DNA from: an uncultured Bacilli bacterium
GTDB lineage: Bacteria > Bacillota_I > Bacilli_A > RF39 > UBA660
Length of the DNA stretch: 64,000 nt
Assembly (NCBI GenBank): GCA_934130005.1
Contig: CAKOXD010000001.1
Span: 705 to 64,704, forward strand
Direction: 5' to 3'
Shown here one piece after another: positions 12,605-57,536 of this stretch. Under the pieces are notes generated by a model. The model searched no databases. It saw nothing but the letters and a program-made list of their open reading frames with translations, and was not told the origin of the DNA. Numbering within the stretch: position 1 is the stretch's first letter; the number at the start of each line of letters is the position of its first letter. Position numbers and translations under genes: made by a program.

Positions 12605-12609
12605 TTAAA

Positions 12610-12633
12610 ATAGCTTGAAAAAAGCTATTTTTT
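12610..12633 (+). terminator. Rho-independent terminator after tig
   Basis: Stem ATAGCTT/AAGCTAT with a GAAAA loop and a T run. Confidence 0.7.
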
Positions 12634-12676
12634 GTTGTATCATTAGTATAGATAAAATAGAAAGTAGGTAAGAAGT

Positions 12677-13914
12677 ATGTTAGCAAATAGGAAATTCGGG
12701 GGGGTTATTTAGATAACCTAAAGAAAGGATTTACACTTATAGAGTTACTTGCAGTTATAGTGATATTAGCAATCATTGCATTAATCGCAACTCCAGTAAT
12801 ATATAGAATAATAAGTAGTTCAAGAATAAGTGCATTTAAAAATAAAATATATGCAATAGATGAAGCCGCAAATACTTATTATGAAAATATAATACTAGAT
12901 GGAGATGAAGATTTATTTACAAAAGGTGCAGATGGAATGTATTCATTAACATTAGATTTAAGTAAAGAAAGTGATTTTGAAAAATTAAATATAAAAAAAT
13001 CAGTAGAAAAAGGATTAGTAGTTATAACAGATGAAGGAAATGTATCAATAACAGCTCTTGATAATAAATTATGTGGATCAAAATATTCAAGCAGTGAAGT
13101 TATAAATATGTTAAGTATAAAAGATGATTTTTCATGTTACTTGTTAGATTCATCAAGTGAAAATATAGGAACAAATGATATATTAAAAGCAATTCAAAAT
13201 CTAAGTAATGAAGTAGAAGAATTAAAAAAATCAAACGAAGAATTAAAAACTTCAAATAATGACTTAAAAATTACTCTAAGTAATATGAATAACAATAGTA
13301 TAGGAACAAAAAATGCTTTGAATAAAATATATCCAGTAGGAAGTATATATATATCAACAACTTTAAATACAACAGATAAAGTAAAAGAAGCTTTAGGTGG
13401 AACATGGGTAGCATATGGAAGTGGTAGAGTACTTAGAGGAACGACTGGTGAAGCGAATGTAACAGGTGGAACAACTGGAAATATCTCATTAACAGCTGAT
13501 AATCTTCCAAGTCATAGACACTCATATACACCAGCAGGAAGTGTTACAAGTACATTTACAGGAACTGCAGTAAATACAGGAAATCAATCGGCTGATCATG
13601 CACATTATTTCAGTGCTACAACAAGTTCAACGGGTATACAATATGCTATAGGAAATCTACAATATTTAGCAAATGGTAATACATACCCAGATTTTAGATA
13701 TACTGGTTCTGGGACAGCTGGAGGTCATACACATACAGTAAGTGGATGGACAGGAGGAGTAAACTCAAATCATACACATCAAGTAACAGCAAAAGGTACA
13801 GTATCAAGTTCATTTACAGGATCAGCTAGCAATACAGGATATGTAGGAAATAATACTTCATTTAGTGTATTAGATCCATATATAACAGTTTATATGTATA
13901 AAAGAACTGAATAG
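12677..13914 (+). CDS. Type IV prepilin fused to a coiled coil and a phage tail-collar/baseplate-fibre-like tip domain. As sequenced, it is frameshifted relative to its ATG.
   Basis: The in-frame sequence KKGFTLIELLAVIVILAIIALIATP lies upstream of the track start (GTG 12760). It has a Cys-Cys pilin loop and the coiled coil NEVEELKKSNEELKTSNNDLK. The tip domain has YPVGSIYIS..GGTW, four HxH motifs (SHRHS, DHAHY, GHTHT, NHTHQ) and ends PYITVYMYKRTE. Confidence 0.75.
12698..12704 (+). repeat. G7 homopolymer tract between the ATG and the prepilin motif
   Basis: It is the longest G or C run I saw in this AT-rich window. It sits 21 nt after ATG 12677. Confidence 0.9.
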
Positions 13915-13934
13915 GCAGATTAATCTGCTTTTTT
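13915..13934 (+). terminator. Rho-independent terminator
   Basis: Stem GCAGATT/AATCTGC followed by T6. Confidence 0.65.
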
Positions 13935-13976
13935 ATTTGAATTATTTATGATATAATTAATTCATTAGGTGATAAT

Positions 13977-15281
13977 ATGGAACAAAAAGTAAGTATAAAT
14001 AGTTTTTTATTGATAGGAATTTCATTAATTTTAATAGGAATATTTACACTAATAGGTAGTGTTAGTTTATTTAAAGACGTTGCTAATGTCATGTTTCTTA
14101 TAATGCTTATAATAAGTATTAAAAATTTAATAAGTTTTTTAGTAAAAAAACAAGAAGATAAATTCAAACTTTTAACAAAAATAACTATTGTAATATTATC
14201 ACTAATAGCATGTATATTCAAAGATTATTCCGTAGCAATCGTACCTATAATATTTGCTATTTATTTATTAATAAATAGTGTAGCTAACTTATTTAACTTT
14301 ATACTTTTAAAACTAAATAAATTAAGAGGTGGATATAGCAACTTATTAATTGGATTAATTTATTTAATATCAGGAATAATGATACTATTTGGGCCACTTA
14401 TTCATTTAAATATAGTTCTTAAAATATTAGGAGTATATTCATTATTACTTGGAATAAGTTCTGTATTTGATTATATAGATTTTAATAATTACATTAAAAT
14501 ACCAAGAATAAAAGTAAATATGCCATTTATTATAGAAGCATTTATACCTATATCGGTATTACAAAAAATAAATAAACAGTATAATATAGAAAATGATGTA
14601 TATGAAAAGATAAATAAAAAAGATAATATAGAACCAGATATAGAAATATTAATCCATGTAACAGAGGATGGATATGGAAAACTAGGACACATGGATATTT
14701 GTTATAAAGATGAAATAATATCATACGGAAATTATGATTATAATAATAATAAATTAAATGGTGTATTTGGAACTGGTGTAGTATTTATTGCTAAACAAAA
14801 ACTAAAATATATAAGATTTTGCATTGAAGATACTAAAAAAACTATATTTGTTTTTGGATTAAAATTAAAAGAAGAAGAAAAACTAGAAATAGAAAAAAGA
14901 ATAAAAAAACTAAAAGAAGAATTAAAAAAATGGGATCCACCATATAAAGAAGCAAGAAAAAAACATAAAAAAGTATCGAATATAAAAGATTATTCAAGTA
15001 GACTATATAAATATATGAAACCAGAATTTTATAAATTTAAATCTGGAAAAAATAAAGTATTCTTTATATTAAAAAACAACTGTGTATCACTTGCTAATAA
15101 AATAATTGGGCCAACACTAAATAAACATCAAAAAATGTATGGTATATTAACACCAGGTACATATTATGATTATTTAGAAAGAGAATATATGAAAAAAAAC
15201 AGTATAGTAATAACAAAAAAAATATATAATAAATATAATATAGATAATTATGACTTGAAAAATAAAAAAAATATGTTATAA
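13977..15281 (+). CDS. Membrane protein: N-terminal multi-TM (HdeD-like) region plus a C-terminal soluble domain with a His...Cys signature
   Basis: About six TM helices are followed by GKLGHMDICY and later FFILKNNCVSLANK. Confidence 0.55.
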   Translation: MEQKVSINSFLLIGISLILIGIFTLIGSVSLFKDVANVMFLIMLIISIKNLISFLVKKQEDKFKLLTKITIVILSLIACIFKDYSVAIVPIIFAIYLLINSVANLFNFILLKLNKLRGGYSNLLIGLIYLISGIMILFGPLIHLNIVLKILGVYSLLLGISSVFDYIDFNNYIKIPRIKVNMPFIIEAFIPISVLQKINKQYNIENDVYEKINKKDNIEPDIEILIHVTEDGYGKLGHMDICYKDEIISYGNYDYNNNKLNGVFGTGVVFIAKQKLKYIRFCIEDTKKTIFVFGLKLKEEEKLEIEKRIKKLKEELKKWDPPYKEARKKHKKVSNIKDYSSRLYKYMKPEFYKFKSGKNKVFFILKNNCVSLANKIIGPTLNKHQKMYGILTPGTYYDYLEREYMKKNSIVITKKIYNKYNIDNYDLKNKKNML

Positions 15282-31736: not shown

Positions 31737-33725
31737 ATGGTGTTTTACATGAAAAATGAAAATAAAAATAAATCTAATTTTTCAATTGTAAAATTATTTT
31801 TCTATCCAATTAAAGGTCTTTACTTTATATTATATTTAATATATTCATTCTTTAAATACTCATTTAAAGGACTAGAATGCTTATTAAGTATTAACTTTTC
31901 AATTATAAAGAAAGCTTTATATGGAATACTATTTATATGTGTTTGTATATTTGATATATTTAAATTAATAGGTAAAACTATATTAAAACCTTTTAAGAAA
32001 AAGAAAGTAAAAAATAAAAAAACGGTTAAAATAGAAAAAGATACAAAACAAGAAAGTAAAAAAGAAAAAGTAAAAAAAATAAAAAAGAAAAAAGAAGAAA
32101 ATAAAGATGTAATTAATAAAAAAGAATTAAAAAAACAACAAATAGAAGAATTAGCTAAAAATTTTATAGAGCAAAAAGAAAAAGAAAAACAAGAAAAAGA
32201 AAGATTACTTGAAATTAAAAATAAGAAAAAACAAGAAGAGCAAAAAGAAAAGAAAGAAAGATTACGTAAGAAAAAAATAAATGAAGAAGCATATGTTAAT
32301 GAAAATGTTAAAATAGAAAAACCAACTATAAGTATGCAAATAAAAAATCTATTCAAAAAAATAGGTATGGTATTTGTATCAATTGGTTCTAAAATAACAA
32401 ATAACTCTTTTTCTAAAAATAGAAGAAATAAAAAAGATATGAAGCGTCAAGCATTACTTATAGATTTTGAAGGTGAAGACGCTAAAAAATCCGAAAAAAA
32501 ATTATTATATGAATATGTAGCAAAAGATAAAAATGGAAAAATAATAAAAGATTACTTTAATGCTTATTCTAAAGTAGAAGTTCATTCTTATTTACTTAGC
32601 GAAGGTTATGAAGTATATAGTATAAAAACTAATAAATTTATTCAATTTTTCCATAAAAATAGTAATACAAATAAAACAAGATTTAAAAACAAAGATCTTA
32701 TATTCTTTTTAACACAATTGTCAACTTATATTAAAGCAGGTATTCCATTAGTTGAATCACTTAGAATAATATCAAGACAATATAAGAAAAAAGCATATCA
32801 AAAAATATTTAGATCAGTAATTTATGAATTAACTATAGGAGAAAACTTTAGTTCAGCTATGGAAAAACAAAACGTTGCTTTTCCTAAATTACTTATAAAC
32901 ATGGTTAAAACAGCTGAAATGACAGGTTCGCTTCCAGAAGTATTAGATGATATGGCAAATTATTATACAGAAGCCGAAGAAACCAGAAAACAAATGGTAA
33001 CAGCTATGACATATCCTACAATTGTATTTTTATTTGCTATTGCTGTTATGATTTTCATAATGGTATATGTAGTACCACAATTTGTTGAAATATTTGAAAC
33101 AATGGATACAAAATTACCTGGTATTACACTTATGATATTAAATTTAAGTTCATTCTTAACACATTATTATATTTTCATAATAATAGCTGTCGTAGCATTC
33201 GTTACATTATTTATCGTTAGCTATAAAAAAATAAGAGGATTTAGAACAATGTGTCAATGGATAATGATGCATATACCAATTATAAATAACACTATCATTT
33301 ATAATGAAGTTACAATGTTTACAAAAACATTCTCATCATTATTAGCTCATAATGTTCCAATAACTGATTGTATGGAAATATTAAATAAAATAACAAATAA
33401 TGAAATTTATAAAATGCTTATTTTAGATACTATTACTAACTTAGCAAGAGGTGGTAAAATATCTGATGCATTTAAAGATCATTGGGCTTTTCCAGTTCCA
33501 GCTTATGAAATGATTGTAACTGGAGAAATGACTGGTGAATTAGCAGAAATGATGGGTAAAGTATCATCATATTATCAAAATTTACATAAAAACTCAGTTA
33601 CAAGAATTAAAACATTTATTGAACCAGCACTTACTATTTTCTTAACATTTGGAGTTGGTGTAATCTTATTATCAATTATTGTACCAATGTTTAGTATGTA
33701 TTCTGCAGTTCAAGAAATGGGATAG
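31737..33725 (+). CDS. pilC: Type IV pilus / T2SS platform protein (GspF/PilC family) with an N-terminal extension of about 250 aa
   Basis: The two GspF repeats start near LYEYVAKDKNGK. The N-terminal extension has two TM helices and a long K/E-rich tract. Confidence 0.85.
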   Translation: MVFYMKNENKNKSNFSIVKLFFYPIKGLYFILYLIYSFFKYSFKGLECLLSINFSIIKKALYGILFICVCIFDIFKLIGKTILKPFKKKKVKNKKTVKIEKDTKQESKKEKVKKIKKKKEENKDVINKKELKKQQIEELAKNFIEQKEKEKQEKERLLEIKNKKKQEEQKEKKERLRKKKINEEAYVNENVKIEKPTISMQIKNLFKKIGMVFVSIGSKITNNSFSKNRRNKKDMKRQALLIDFEGEDAKKSEKKLLYEYVAKDKNGKIIKDYFNAYSKVEVHSYLLSEGYEVYSIKTNKFIQFFHKNSNTNKTRFKNKDLIFFLTQLSTYIKAGIPLVESLRIISRQYKKKAYQKIFRSVIYELTIGENFSSAMEKQNVAFPKLLINMVKTAEMTGSLPEVLDDMANYYTEAEETRKQMVTAMTYPTIVFLFAIAVMIFIMVYVVPQFVEIFETMDTKLPGITLMILNLSSFLTHYYIFIIIAVVAFVTLFIVSYKKIRGFRTMCQWIMMHIPIINNTIIYNEVTMFTKTFSSLLAHNVPITDCMEILNKITNNEIYKMLILDTITNLARGGKISDAFKDHWAFPVPAYEMIVTGEMTGELAEMMGKVSSYYQNLHKNSVTRIKTFIEPALTIFLTFGVGVILLSIIVPMFSMYSAVQEMG

Positions 33726-33734
33726 GAGAGAAGT

Positions 33735-34502
33735 ATGGAAATATATTATGCAATTGTTTTCTTCATTTTTGGCACAATTTTAGGTTCATTTTATAATGTA
33801 GTTGGTTATAGACTTCCAAGAGGAGAATCAATTGCCTTTCCAGCTAGCCACTGTACCAAATGTGGACATAAACTTACACCATTTGAACTAATTCCAATAA
33901 TATCTTTTTTACTACAAAAAGGTAGATGTACTAAATGTGGCGATAAAATATCATGGTTTTATACAATATTTGAATTTGCAACAGGAATTCTTTTTGCTAT
34001 TTCATATTTAGTATTTGGAATATCAATAGATTTATTAATAGTACTAACATTTATATCTATGCTTTTAATAGTAATAATAAGCGATTATCAAACTATGATT
34101 ATTCCTGATGAATTATTAATTACTACAGTTATATTATTGATGATAGAAATATTTTTAAAAAGTGGTATAACCGGATTATTAACATCACTACTAAACGGAT
34201 TAATAATGTTTACTATTATGTTTTTAATAAAAAAAATAGGTGATTTTATATTTAAAAAAGAATCAATGGGTGGTGGAGACATAAAACTTATGTTTATATA
34301 TGGTATGGTCTTAGGGTGGCCTACATCATGTATATCTATTTGCTTCGCATCATTTATAGGATTACCTGTATCATTAATATTAATAAAAAAATTAAAAAAT
34401 CACGAAATACCATTTGGACCATTTTTAGCAATTTCAGCAATTATAATGGTACTATTTAAAATAGATTTCAATTGGGTTTTAAATTTACTAAGTGAAATAT
34501 AA
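33735..34502 (+). CDS. pilD: Prepilin peptidase (A24 family)
   Basis: Contains the zinc-finger pairs CTKCGH and CTKCGD and the catalytic-Asp contexts IISDYQ and GGGDIKLM. Confidence 0.9.
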   Translation: MEIYYAIVFFIFGTILGSFYNVVGYRLPRGESIAFPASHCTKCGHKLTPFELIPIISFLLQKGRCTKCGDKISWFYTIFEFATGILFAISYLVFGISIDLLIVLTFISMLLIVIISDYQTMIIPDELLITTVILLMIEIFLKSGITGLLTSLLNGLIMFTIMFLIKKIGDFIFKKESMGGGDIKLMFIYGMVLGWPTSCISICFASFIGLPVSLILIKKLKNHEIPFGPFLAISAIIMVLFKIDFNWVLNLLSEI

Positions 34503-35007: not shown

Positions 35008-35499
35008 ATGAAAAAAAGAGGTTTTACATTAATAGAACTATTAGCAGTTATAGTGATATTAGCAATTATCGCATTAATCGCAACACCAATAATATTAAAC
35101 ATGATAAATAATGCAAGAAAAAGTGCAGCAGTAGATAGTGCATACGGATATATAGAAGCAGTTGAATATAATAATTCAATGAATATGATAAACAAAGATA
35201 AATATCCATTAATAGAAGATGGAGAAGATATTGATATAAGTACAATAACAAATATAAATATTAAAGGAACAAAACCTGATAGTGGTAAAATATCAATAAG
35301 TAAAAAAAGAGTAGTTAGTGCATCATTATGTATAAGTGGATATACTGTAGAATATGACTCTAAAAAAGCAGAAGCCATAGGTAAATGTAATGAAACAAGT
35401 GATAAAATTGATTCCTCAAACGTATCATTTACTCCAAGTGATTCTAGTTGGAATGTAAATACAGTCGAAGAAGCACTTAATTATTTATATGAGAATTAG
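35008..35499 (+). CDS. Type IV pilin (class III signal peptide), probably the major pilin
   Basis: Begins MKKRGFTLIELLAVIVILAIIALIATP. It has a C-terminal Cys pair and ends NVNTVEEALNYLYEN. Confidence 0.88.
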   Translation: MKKRGFTLIELLAVIVILAIIALIATPIILNMINNARKSAAVDSAYGYIEAVEYNNSMNMINKDKYPLIEDGEDIDISTITNINIKGTKPDSGKISISKKRVVSASLCISGYTVEYDSKKAEAIGKCNETSDKIDSSNVSFTPSDSSWNVNTVEEALNYLYEN

Positions 35500-54008: not shown

Positions 54009-54929
54009 ATGAAAAAATTAATTATGTATCTATTAGTTATAATAATGTTTTTAATTTTAAAAAATTCTAGTATTATAATAAATACAGTTATATATTCTGT
54101 TAACCTATTTAAAGCAAGCATTTTTCCATCTTTATTTCCATTCTTTATTATTTCTGAATTATTAATTAATTATGGATTTATTGATTATTTATCTAATATT
54201 TTTAAATCATTAATGCTAAAAATATTTAAAATTAATCCAAATTGTTCTTTTATCTTATTTATGAGTATGATTTCTGGCTTTCCAAGTAATTCAAAATATA
54301 CAAAAGATTTATATTTAAAAGGTGAAATAAATGAAATGGAAGCATCTAAAATACTTATGTATACTCATTTTTCAAATCCATTATTTATAATGGGAGCTAT
54401 TTCAATTACATTCTTGCATGATAAAAAAGCTGGATTTATAATTTTATTAATTCATTATTTATCTAACTTTATAATTGGTATACTAAGTAGAAATTTTATA
54501 AAAACACCTATTAGTGATAAAATTGTAAAAAAAAATACAACTAATAATTTTTCCTATATATTAAGTAAAGCTATAATTAATAGTTTTAATACTCTTTTTT
54601 TAATATTAGGAACCATAATTATATTCCAGATTATAACTAACTTAACAAGTGAAATACTGCCTTTAAATGACTATTTTAAAGCTATAATTAGTGGTATTTT
54701 AGAAATGAGTAGTGGAATCTATAATATTAGTTTATTAAATATTCCACTAAAAAATAAATGTACTTTAATTGGTATGATTTTATCATTTGGAGGAATAAGT
54801 GTACATATGCAAATAAAAAGTATCCTATCAGATACTAAAATTAAATACTATCCTTTCTTTATAGCTCGTTTAATTCATAGTGCTATAACAGGACTACTTA
54901 TGTTTTATTTATTTGATTTTATTTATTAA
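54009..54929 (+). CDS. ylbJ: Sporulation integral membrane protein YlbJ (nucleoside-recognition Gate domains)
   Basis: Polytopic protein with the FPSLFPFFIISELL motif. It is adjacent to the ylbL homologue, as in Bacillus. Confidence 0.75.
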   Translation: MKKLIMYLLVIIMFLILKNSSIIINTVIYSVNLFKASIFPSLFPFFIISELLINYGFIDYLSNIFKSLMLKIFKINPNCSFILFMSMISGFPSNSKYTKDLYLKGEINEMEASKILMYTHFSNPLFIMGAISITFLHDKKAGFIILLIHYLSNFIIGILSRNFIKTPISDKIVKKNTTNNFSYILSKAIINSFNTLFLILGTIIIFQIITNLTSEILPLNDYFKAIISGILEMSSGIYNISLLNIPLKNKCTLIGMILSFGGISVHMQIKSILSDTKIKYYPFFIARLIHSAITGLLMFYLFDFIY

Positions 54930-55419
54930 AAGTAGTTAAAATAGTATTATCAAATGTTATAGTGTCATTTATCTGACTAACAATACTAATACCATAATCT
55001 CCTTTTAATAATTTATTTTTAATAGAAACATTTATTTTTATAATACTTCCTATATCAAAATCATCTTTATTAATATAGATATCTTCAAATGAACTTGAAT
55101 CACTTAATTTTATAGAATAATTATCATATGTAATTATTTTTTTTGTTTTATCTACCTTTAAGTTTTTACTTCCAGTATCATAAGTAAAAGTAATACAGTT
55201 ATCTCCACATGATTTTATTTCACTTAATACTTTATTATTTAAATCGTTTTTTATTTTATCAGTCAATGTACCTTGTTTTGTAAGTAAAACAGTTCTCATA
55301 TCACCACTAATATATAATTCTTTTAAAGAGATAGTTAATTTTATTAAAAGAGTTGCTATTACAGATATTAACACAAAAGTTGTCATTAATTCAACTACAG
55401 TAAAACCTCTATTTTTCAT
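54919..55419 (-). CDS. Minor pilin / pseudopilin
   Basis: Has the class III signal MKNRGFTVVELMTTFVLISV. Confidence 0.75.
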   Translation of the reverse strand: MKNRGFTVVELMTTFVLISVIATLLIKLTISLKELYISGDMRTVLLTKQGTLTDKIKNDLNNKVLSEIKSCGDNCITFTYDTGSKNLKVDKTKKIITYDNYSIKLSDSSSFEDIYINKDDFDIGSIIKINVSIKNKLLKGDYGISIVSQINDTITFDNTILTTFNK

Positions 55420-56045: not shown

Positions 56046-57536
56046 ATGTTAAAAAAATTTGATTTTGACAAAGTCCCTGTAGTTGAAATTGTCAATGATA
56101 TATTAGTTGACAGTAGTAAAAGAGGTGCAAGTGATATTCACTTCGATCCTCATGAAGATTTCATGCTTATTAGAATACGTATAGATGGTTCTTTAATTGA
56201 TTATGCTGAAGTACCAAATGGTATAAAAAAGAATCTTATAACTCGTATTAAAATTATATCTGGTATGAATATAACTGAATCAAGATTACCACAAGATGGT
56301 GCTATAAAGCAAACACTTCAAGGTATTGATTTAGACCTTCGTGTTTCTTGCTTACCTACCTTAGAAGGTGAAAAAATAGTTATTCGTATTCTTGACTATT
56401 CAATGAGCCAAGCAGGTCTTGAAACATTAGGTTTTAGTGAAGAAAATTATGAAAAAGTTATGAGAATGATAACAGCTCCAAATGGTATTATTTTAGTTAC
56501 AGGTGCTACTGGTAGTGGTAAATCAACTACTGTATACTCTATTTTACAAAGACTAAATAAAGAAGATACAAATATAATTACAGTTGAGGATCCAATAGAA
56601 ATGAATATTGAAGGTGTTAACCAAGTTCAAACAAACAGTGAAATTGGTCTTACATTTGCTAATGCATTACGTTCTATTTTACGTCAAGACCCTAATATAA
56701 TAATGATTGGAGAAATTCGTGATACTGAAACTGCTAAAATAGCTGTCCGTGCCTCTATTACTGGTCACTTAGTATTATCTACAATCCACACAAATAACTC
56801 ACTTAATACAATTGAACGTTTACTTGATATGGATGTTGAAAGATACTTACTTGCAAGTGCTTTAACAGGTATAATTTCTCAAAAATTAGCTCGCCGCTTA
56901 TGTCCAAAATGTTCTAAGAAAAGACCTACTAATGATTATGAAAAAGATTTATTTAAAAAAGTTCTTAACCGTGATATAGAAGAAGTATATACTGTAGAAG
57001 GTTGTGAAGAATGCGGTAATGGATATAAGGGACGTATCGCAATTCATGAAGTCTTACTTGTTAATCAAGAGATAAAAGATGCGATTAGTAGTAATTTAAG
57101 AAAGGATAAATTAAGAGAACTAGTATATAGAAATGATGTTACTACTCTACTTCAAGATGGTCTTGAAAAAGTTGTAGAAGGAAAAACAACTGTAGAAGAA
57201 ATATTAAAAATAATAGAACTTGATAATGATGATAAAGCAACTGAAGGTGAATATGATTTAAAAGATGCATTAGATTTAACTAATATTTCTAAAACCGGTC
57301 ATAAAGAAAAACATGAAACAGAACTAGAACAAACAGAAGACTTCTTAAAAGAATTAAAAGCTGACGAAATGAAAACTGACGAAGTAAAAGATAATAAAAA
57401 TGTCACAAAAGATACTTCTACTGATATAAAAGATAATTTAGATAACATAAATAATTTACTTAAAGATATAAATAGTAATACTAAAAAAGAAACAAAAAAA
57501 GATCCATTAGATGATCTATTAGATATACAATTTTAG
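56046..57536 (+). CDS. pilB: Type IV pilus / T2SS assembly ATPase (GspE/PilB family) with a long charged C-terminal tail
   Basis: Contains Walker A (GATGSGKST), Walker B (IIMIGEIRD) and the His box (GHLVLSTIHTN). It has the tetracysteine CPKC...CEEC and about 100 aa of D/E/K-rich tail. Confidence 0.9.
   Translation: MLKKFDFDKVPVVEIVNDILVDSSKRGASDIHFDPHEDFMLIRIRIDGSLIDYAEVPNGIKKNLITRIKIISGMNITESRLPQDGAIKQTLQGIDLDLRVSCLPTLEGEKIVIRILDYSMSQAGLETLGFSEENYEKVMRMITAPNGIILVTGATGSGKSTTVYSILQRLNKEDTNIITVEDPIEMNIEGVNQVQTNSEIGLTFANALRSILRQDPNIIMIGEIRDTETAKIAVRASITGHLVLSTIHTNNSLNTIERLLDMDVERYLLASALTGIISQKLARRLCPKCSKKRPTNDYEKDLFKKVLNRDIEEVYTVEGCEECGNGYKGRIAIHEVLLVNQEIKDAISSNLRKDKLRELVYRNDVTTLLQDGLEKVVEGKTTVEEILKIIELDNDDKATEGEYDLKDALDLTNISKTGHKEKHETELEQTEDFLKELKADEMKTDEVKDNKNVTKDTSTDIKDNLDNINNLLKDINSNTKKETKKDPLDDLLDIQF

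Follow-up and report, generated by a model that had tools for sequence, protein, structure and literature searches.

A probable poly-G phase switch in the leader of a modular type IV pilin gene from an uncultured gut Bacilli bacterium

The pilin gene and the G tract in its leader

We analysed a 64,000-nucleotide stretch of DNA (the window; contig CAKOXD010000001.1 of assembly GCA_934130005.1) from an uncultured Bacilli bacterium and focused on a gene for a modular type IV prepilin whose leader-coding region contains a run of seven G. All features of this gene lie on the forward (+) strand, and positions are counted from the first letter of the window. The open frame of the prepilin (12691..13914) comprises 407 codons plus a stop codon; it starts just 3′ of a TAG (12688–12690), begins EIRGGYLDNLKKGFTLIELLAVIV… and ends at 13914. 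As a preliminary description of this DNA had stated, no ATG, GTG or TTG precedes the cleavage motif G|FTLIEL, and an alternative in-frame start is absent between 12691 and the cleavage site. The earliest such codon is GTG 12760, located 11 codons past the G|F boundary (GGA 12727, TTT 12730). Gene callers choose this GTG as the start of the gene; we rejected it, as it is situated inside the hydrophobic α1N segment and lacks a ribosome-binding site.

A plausible start is found in a different frame. ATG 12677–12679 is preceded by the ribosome-binding-like sequence AGGTAAGAAGT (12666..12679, including the ATG) and opens a short frame (12677..12712) that reads MLANRKFGGVI and then terminates at TAG 12710–12712. 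This frame and the prepilin frame overlap across the homopolymer GGGGGGG at 12698–12704, which is exactly seven G long and parts the two. Rereading the sequence bears out each of these points of the preliminary description. By frame arithmetic, tract lengths of 5, 8, 11 and so on at 12698 place the ATG in frame with the prepilin. Addition of one G yields the leader MLANRKFGGGYLDNLKKG|FTLIEL, as had been predicted; removal of two G also restores the frame, as claimed, but the resulting leader has one glycine fewer (…FGGYL…) and is not the same product.

The tract is exceptional for its surroundings. The window has a GC content of 22.6%, and G7 is its longest G or C run, as noted before: it is the sole run of six or more in the 64 kb, and the next longest is 5. 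Under a mononucleotide or first-order model, 0.02–0.08 runs of six or more G or C are expected per window by chance. G7 thus has the hallmark of a contingency locus, a homopolymer of about seven or more G or C in an open reading frame (ORF) or promoter that is unusual for the genome. The housekeeping ORFs are intact under the standard code 11.

Candidate transcription signals flank the gene. A putative σ70-like promoter, TTGAAA with a 17-nucleotide spacer and TATCAT (12615..12643), is the top promoter-like match of the region by agreement with the consensus (10/12 positions); TTGAAA-17-TATAAT is found at the aligned position in two loci of a relative (L002 and L003; see below). The −35 hexamer lies in the loop of a weak terminator-like hairpin that follows the trigger factor gene (ATAGCTT-gaaaa-AAGCTAT and a T run, 12610..12633). 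It forms the 5′ boundary of the conserved pilin cassette, and L002 and L003 have a counterpart. The segment AGAAAGTAGGTA…ATG is kept in L001, L002, L003 and L007. Directly 3′ of the stop codon, a hairpin (13913–13930) and a T run form an intrinsic-terminator-like structure (13913..13940), and the gene looks like an independent, monocistronic transcription unit.

We also considered a role for G7 as a promoter spacer (TTAGCA … G7 … TATTTA). No acceptable −35/−10 pair brackets the tract, either here or in any window-type locus, and the promoter-like site is located upstream of the ATG; we therefore conclude that the tract acts through the reading frame and not through the spacing of a promoter. 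The spacer reading is further rejected because a transcript starting past the tract would have no start codon before G|F.

The encoded protein has three parts. Its N-terminus contains the core of a class III signal peptide, G|FTLIELLAVIVILAIIALIATP (12727..12795), with Gly−1 (12727–12729), Phe+1, Glu+5 and the hydrophobic α1N segment. The features that define a type IV pilin, namely a hydrophilic leader ending in glycine, about 21 hydrophobic residues and Glu+5, are all present in …LKKG|FTLIELLAVIVILAIIALIATP. The frame matches the Pfam families N_methyl (33.5 bits, cutoff 21.2) and Gp10_C (51.6 bits, cutoff 27) and the NCBIfam model IV_pilin_GFxxxE (TIGR02532; 33.6, cutoff 16.3). The pilin module (12730..13155) was delimited with an AlphaFold2 model and a profile search against the PDB. 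In the model, helix 16–70 is followed by strands 84–141 with pLDDT (predicted local distance difference test) values of 82–93, so that the α1 helix and β-sheet head of the pilin fold are present, as a prediction only. In agreement with this, the N-termini of the solved pilins MshA and PilE1 are found with a profile of 28 homologues.

A long, coiled-coil-like helix of 44 residues (13165..13296; model helix 159–202), with weak Pfam matches to ZapB, DivIC and bZIP, joins the pilin module to a fibre module (13318..13908) with HxH motifs. The latter is related to the C-terminal domain of gp10 and the gp37 tip of phage T4: the Gp10_C match spans amino acids 210–406 and covers profile positions 2–139 of 139, and in the PDB the 28-homologue profile finds gp10 (2fkk, E=5e-10) and gp37 (2xgf, E=2e-4). 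Profile homology to 2fkk/5hx2 and 2xgf extends over amino acids ∼190–393 and includes repeated HxH motifs. In contrast to the T4 proteins, the domain is fused here to a prepilin; homotrimeric assembly and metal coordination by the HxH motifs, which characterise the family, would be putative here. This part of the protein is β-rich and of low confidence in the AlphaFold2 monomer model; a Foldseek search of the PDB with the whole model gave no meaningful match.

The combination of N_methyl and Gp10_C is common to dozens of homologues in the protein database. The protein fits the definition of modular pilins in PMC8179133, since a pilin module is joined to a domain that is not specific to pilus biology. 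The name "fibre-tipped pilin", under which the gene was first described, is a fair description of the sequence, with the location at the tip and the binding function as predictions. The HxH-rich centre of the fibre (∼13560–13800, amino acids ∼290–370) is swapped or resized among alleles that are otherwise 90–99% identical (P0001 and P0003–P0007), and the final ∼45 residues are constant. Judging from this pattern, the hypervariable HxH core is probably ligand-facing.

Tract length and gene integrity at related loci

We fetched the contigs of close homologues and identified nine loci with identical tract flanks, ATGTTAGCAAATAGNAAANTC-[tract]-TTATTTARATAACCTAAAGAAAGGATTTAC. At the tig (trigger factor) locus, the tract is G7 and out of frame both in the window and in another sample (L001). 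The copies adjoining bacA in three samples (L007, L089 and L090) have G9, again out of frame. The remaining four loci adjoin mutL in a relative: G11 is in frame (L002), G9 (L006) and G12 (L088) are out of frame, and an interrupted 8-mer, GGGAGAGG, is in frame (L003). All three reading frames thus occur among the nine loci, with G11 and the interrupted 8-mer as the only in-frame versions, and tract length toggles the frame of an otherwise intact gene across alleles, as in contingency loci.

The fused leader foreseen in the preliminary description therefore exists in frame in relatives. In L002 (protein P0009) it reads MLANSKIGGGGYLNNLKKG|FTLIEL and in L003 (P0008) MLANSKIGRGYLNNLKKG|FTLIEL, and gene callers report both alleles as full-length N_methyl+Gp10_C proteins. 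These two, at 68% identity in the protein search, are the homologues with a long leader in frame; most N_methyl+Gp10_C homologues begin MKKKG|FTLIEL. Several close homologues (P0002, P0018 and P0028) are called from internal start codons and are N-terminally truncated; a look-up of the truncated product of the window itself (P0121) found no record. A scan of JGI metagenome contigs and IMG/VR viral contigs with a DNA pattern for the leader module gave 0 matches, and a protein-database search with the N-terminal 176 amino acids was dominated by generic pilins and returned no new long-leader variants.

A further comparison involves L002, L006 and L088, which come from three samples of one study. 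In terms of frame, G11 is ON, and G9 and G12 are OFF. The three loci are identical over 3.8–6.8 kb with the exception of the tract and two single-nucleotide polymorphisms (SNPs) at +341 and +720, both in the pilin gene. This would make them essentially one strain, found in the ON state in one of the samples and in the OFF state, at a different length each time, in the other two. Among near-identical strains, tract length thus varies in the relative (11, 9 and 12) and is G7 in both assemblies of the window allele. The preliminary description had reasoned that a tract fixed in frame in all related genomes would point to a simple consensus error; the relatives have no such fixed tract.

Apart from the frame, the OFF alleles appear to be sound genes. 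They have an uninterrupted ORF of 384–406 codons past the cleavage site in genomes of ∼23% GC, in which stop codons abound, and the ratio of nonsynonymous to synonymous substitution rates (dN/dS) of the pilin module is 0.11–0.22 between the window and three conspecific alleles. L002 and L003 do not enter this value, as indels invalidate a naive codon comparison with the window. Promoter, ribosome-binding site, ATG and terminator are intact alongside the full ORF. Since no additional disabling mutations are found in the OFF alleles, the decaying pseudogene that had been named as an obvious alternative is not what these observations describe.

The copies probably exchange sequence with one another. 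The window and L001 are identical over 7155 nucleotides (7.2 kb) except for 9 differences, all of which fall into a patch of 62 nucleotides at 12843..12904 (ENIILDGDEDLF versus ENLMLNGNEDLF). The version of the patch in L001 is present in other copies too, and the patch looks like the result of gene conversion between pilin copies. On a larger scale, the whole unit from the hairpin with the −35 hexamer to the end of the gene (12607–13930 in the window, 384–1660 in L007) recurs at other chromosomal sites, adjoining bacA and, in the relative, adjoining DUF5698/mutL. The homology of L007 to the window starts at 12607. The unit would be a transposable or duplicated cassette. Paralogues also occur on a single contig of 51,204 nucleotides, which encodes both P0010 and P0024. 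The latter has a degenerate signal (MKKSKFTLLVTIVALS, without Gly−1 and Glu+5), a shortened pilin module and an intact fibre module, and may be a silent or decaying copy.

A proposed reading-frame switch and its alternatives

We consider it likely that G7 is a contingency (slipped-strand) tract in the prepilin leader of a monocistronic modular type IV pilin gene. Slipped-strand phase variation, with the gene OFF in this sequence, had been proposed from the window itself, and the in-frame relatives, the length polymorphism and the intact ORFs now support it. According to this mechanism, transcription would start at TTGAAA-17-TATCAT, upstream of the tract, and translation at ATG 12677. The ribosome would then arrive at the G|FTLIEL class III signal or miss it according to the length of the tract modulo 3: lengths of 5, 8 and 11 would give a leader of the form MLANRKF-(G)n-YLDNLKKG and a full-length prepilin, and lengths of 7, 9, 10 and 12 a stop after 11–13 codons. 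Slippage during replication would add or drop a G and thereby turn expression ON or OFF, with OFF as the predicted state of the window. Because the tract codes for glycine only, within a leader that would be cut off by the prepilin peptidase (33735–34502), in-frame changes in length would leave the mature pilin unaltered. The ON product is predicted to be a subunit presented by the pilus, probably at its tip, with a binding module similar to phage gp10/gp37. The anatomy of the locus, the frame arithmetic, the in-frame homologues, the length polymorphism and the intact ORFs under purifying selection are observed; the use of ATG 12677 as the start, the rate and reversibility of switching at G7, the incorporation of the product into pili and its function as an adhesin are predicted.

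A number of observations weigh against this interpretation. G7 is the shortest tract of the series, and slippage falls steeply with shorter tracts. Both assemblies of the window allele have G7, so that this allele may be in a slow or effectively locked OFF state. All three sequenced copies of the bacA locus have G9, and no ON long-leader allele was found from the window's own species, the ON examples belonging to a relative at 68–69% amino-acid identity. Consensus assemblies cannot reveal heterogeneity within a population, and homopolymers of 9–12 are error-prone in any sequencing chemistry. In addition, the tig locus of other strains (L004 and L005) has a tract-free 5′ end with a short leader, MKKNG|FTLIEL. 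This module (TTGAAA-17-TATACT, AGGTGAT, ATG AAA AAG AAT GGA; 2978–3005 in L004/L005) carries its own −10 box and ribosome-binding site. It and the long-leader module at 12641–12719 of the window are two alternative 5′ modules within one species, with flanks that are 99.2–99.4% identical on both sides. The long-leader alleles could, on this comparison, be long-term silent.

The main rival explanation is accordingly a fixed frameshift, in which the long-leader allele has become stably silent, as an early pseudogene or possibly as a recombination donor, similar to a pilS cassette, for expressed pilin genes with short leaders. We regard this as rather improbable. It would account for the OFF state of all long-leader alleles from the window's species (G7 at tig in 2 assemblies, G9 at bacA on 3 contigs) and for P0018 and its cluster mates, which are called as truncated proteins on all 6 contigs. 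It would also fit the short-leader module at the same locus, which is predicted to be expressed, and the mosaic patch of 62 nucleotides, which indicates recombination between copies. On the other hand, a silent copy does not readily explain why promoter, ribosome-binding site, ATG, full ORF and terminator are intact or why dN/dS is as low as observed. Without selection on the tract, it is hard to see how a G-rich run is kept at three loci in two species against a background of 22.6% GC, and ON and OFF lengths coexist among near-identical strains of the relative.

An error in the consensus, with a true tract of G8 (or G5) and a gene that is simply intact, is very unlikely for the window. Indels in assembly and sequencing classically arise at homopolymers, and the differences between G9, G11 and G12 on near-identical contigs could in principle include miscalls. 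Nevertheless, G7 was found independently in L001, which comes from another sample and is separated from the window by 9 SNPs, and three independent assemblies of the bacA locus agree on G9. To judge by the contig names (k141_, NODE_), the assemblers were probably of the short-read type, by which a run of 7 bases is usually called reliably. Moreover, the out-of-frame lengths fall into both wrong frames, unlike a systematic bias of one base. We judge it highly improbable that full-length prepilin is made from G7 by recoding, through programmed ribosomal frameshifting or slippage of RNA polymerase. Transcriptional slippage can occur at homopolymer runs and is a means by which some reduced genomes rescue frameshifted genes; slippage of RNA polymerase may give low-level leakiness, although the data do not require it. 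A programmed −1 frameshift would be expected to use an X XXY YYZ heptamer in the zero frame, with an identical shift across all alleles. Neither is found, as the zero frame reads TTC GGG GGG GTT, and G7 needs a −1 shift whereas G9 and G12 need +1, so that no single signal rescues all OFF alleles. In-frame alleles, furthermore, would be superfluous at a dedicated recoding site.

Genes for machinery that would process and assemble the product lie within the window. We identified a PilC-like T2SSF protein (31737–33725, +), the prepilin peptidase (peptidase A24; 33735–34502, +), a pilin with the short leader MKKRG|FTLIEL (35008–35499, +), a minor pilin-like gene (54919–55419, −) and a PilB-like T2SSE ATPase (56046–57536, +). 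The neighbourhood of the fibre-pilin gene itself consists of chromosomal housekeeping genes (greA, tig, pheST) and is not a phage tail module. An ORF of 434 amino acids follows the pilin (13977–15281); its sole match is a DUF308 repeat (3.9e-07, 30.7 bits, cutoff 25), and in L001, L004 and L005 it likewise lies beside the pilin of the tig locus. In L003, a 597-amino-acid modular pilin with N_methyl and LRR_5 (150–1943) lies directly upstream of the fibre-pilin, and several kinds of module-bearing pilins thus cluster in the relative.

Poly-G tracts in related gut bacteria and in known systems

To place the tract in a wider context, we scanned species-representative genomes with the pilin N-terminus and obtained at least 80 loci from metagenome-assembled genomes (MAGs) of uncultured gut "Bacilli", "Tenericutes" and "Mycoplasmatota". 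The matches listed are distant pilins with ≤74% identity over short N-terminal segments only, and the labels among them include Candidatus Fimihabitans (NCBI: Mycoplasmatota incertae sedis). We then surveyed G and C runs in 80 scan loci and seven loci obtained separately (87 loci, 482 kb). Without exception, G runs of 7 or more are on the sense strand and closely precede a gene for a pilin or a Gp10_C protein, and C runs of 7 or more are absent. Tracts of G7–G12 occur at 13 further loci (L008, L014, L017, L018, L021, L023, L034, L037, L038, L047, L062, L069 and L076).

At four of these (L017, L018, L038 and L069), the tract lies between hexamers that match TTGACA/TATAAT at 11/12 positions with spacers of 18–19 nucleotides, an arrangement that suggests promoter-spacer phase variation. 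The hexamer pairs around the tract are weaker in L021, L023 and L076. From these comparisons, poly-G switches on pilus genes appear to be lineage-wide and to act in a transcriptional as well as a translational mode. In L034 (∼2834–2870) and L062 (∼2835–2870), the sequence ATGTTAGCAAATAGNAAA-G9-(C)ATTTAG is located ∼150 nucleotides before pilin genes equipped with a ribosome-binding site and ATG of their own; this upstream module is either a relic or serves regulation in another way, for instance as a short upstream ORF. A tattttaaataCCTCTTCttttttg-like sequence is found just past the tract in L021, L023, L076, L008 and L037. Pairing of the G run with CCTCTTC could give a hairpin with a T run behind it, similar to a terminator or attenuator.

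Homopolymer phase variation is textbook knowledge in Neisseria, Haemophilus, Campylobacter and Helicobacter; to our knowledge, it is hardly described for uncultured gut commensals or for type IV pili of the Gram-positive type. In pilC of Neisseria, the tract is located in the region coding for the signal peptide, and in-frame changes spare the mature protein. The part of PMC5953494 that deals with pilC of N. gonorrhoeae and N. meningitidis describes, citing Jonsson et al. 1991, a G tract of 9–20 in the reading frame with ON/OFF switching by frameshift. The two systems share a G tract in the frame of a type IV pilus gene whose length varies among strains. PilC/PilY1, however, is not a pilin and has a Sec signal peptide, whereas the tract described here is shorter (7) and lies in the class III leader of the pilin itself, in an uncultured gut bacterium of the monoderm type with very low GC content. 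The poly-C promoter-spacer switch of Neisseria opc (PMC3960869) is resembled by the related loci L017, L018, L038 and L069; the tract of the window, in contrast, is downstream of the start codon and has no hexamer pair around it.

With regard to its architecture, the protein is closest in layout to the modular pilins PilB and PilC of Streptococcus sanguinis, for which exposure at the pilus tip and ligand binding have been proposed (PMC8179133). In both cases a class III pilin module is fused to a bulky functional module, but here the grafted module is similar to phage T4 gp10/gp37 and is reached via a long helix. Switching by a repeat tract is not reported for the S. sanguinis pilins in that paper. 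In the literature we searched, neither poly-G switching of pilins in gut Bacilli or Mycoplasmatota-like bacteria nor a pilin–Gp10_C fusion is described, which is not proof of novelty. The mechanism is already known; the lineage and the target gene are new. If the frame switch is real, automated gene calls on MAGs would regularly cut such pilins short or overlook them, as with P0002, P0018 and P0028. The specificity of the pilus tip would be under stochastic on/off control in this lineage, and a phage fibre domain would have been recruited as a pilus-borne binding module.

As a tentative and so far speculative extension, reduced-genome gut Bacilli and Mycoplasmatota-like bacteria of very low GC content might share a lineage-wide system, of which this locus is one instance. 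Their type IV pili would carry exchangeable receptor-binding modules of phage origin at the tip, related to gp10/gp37 and hypervariable in the HxH core. A poly-G switch of its own, in the leader frame or in the promoter spacer, would gate every copy, and complete cassettes reaching from the hairpin and promoter to the terminator would be shuffled between loci. The outcome would be combinatorial, heritable variation in what the pili bind, be it host glycans, other bacteria or, as decoys, phages.

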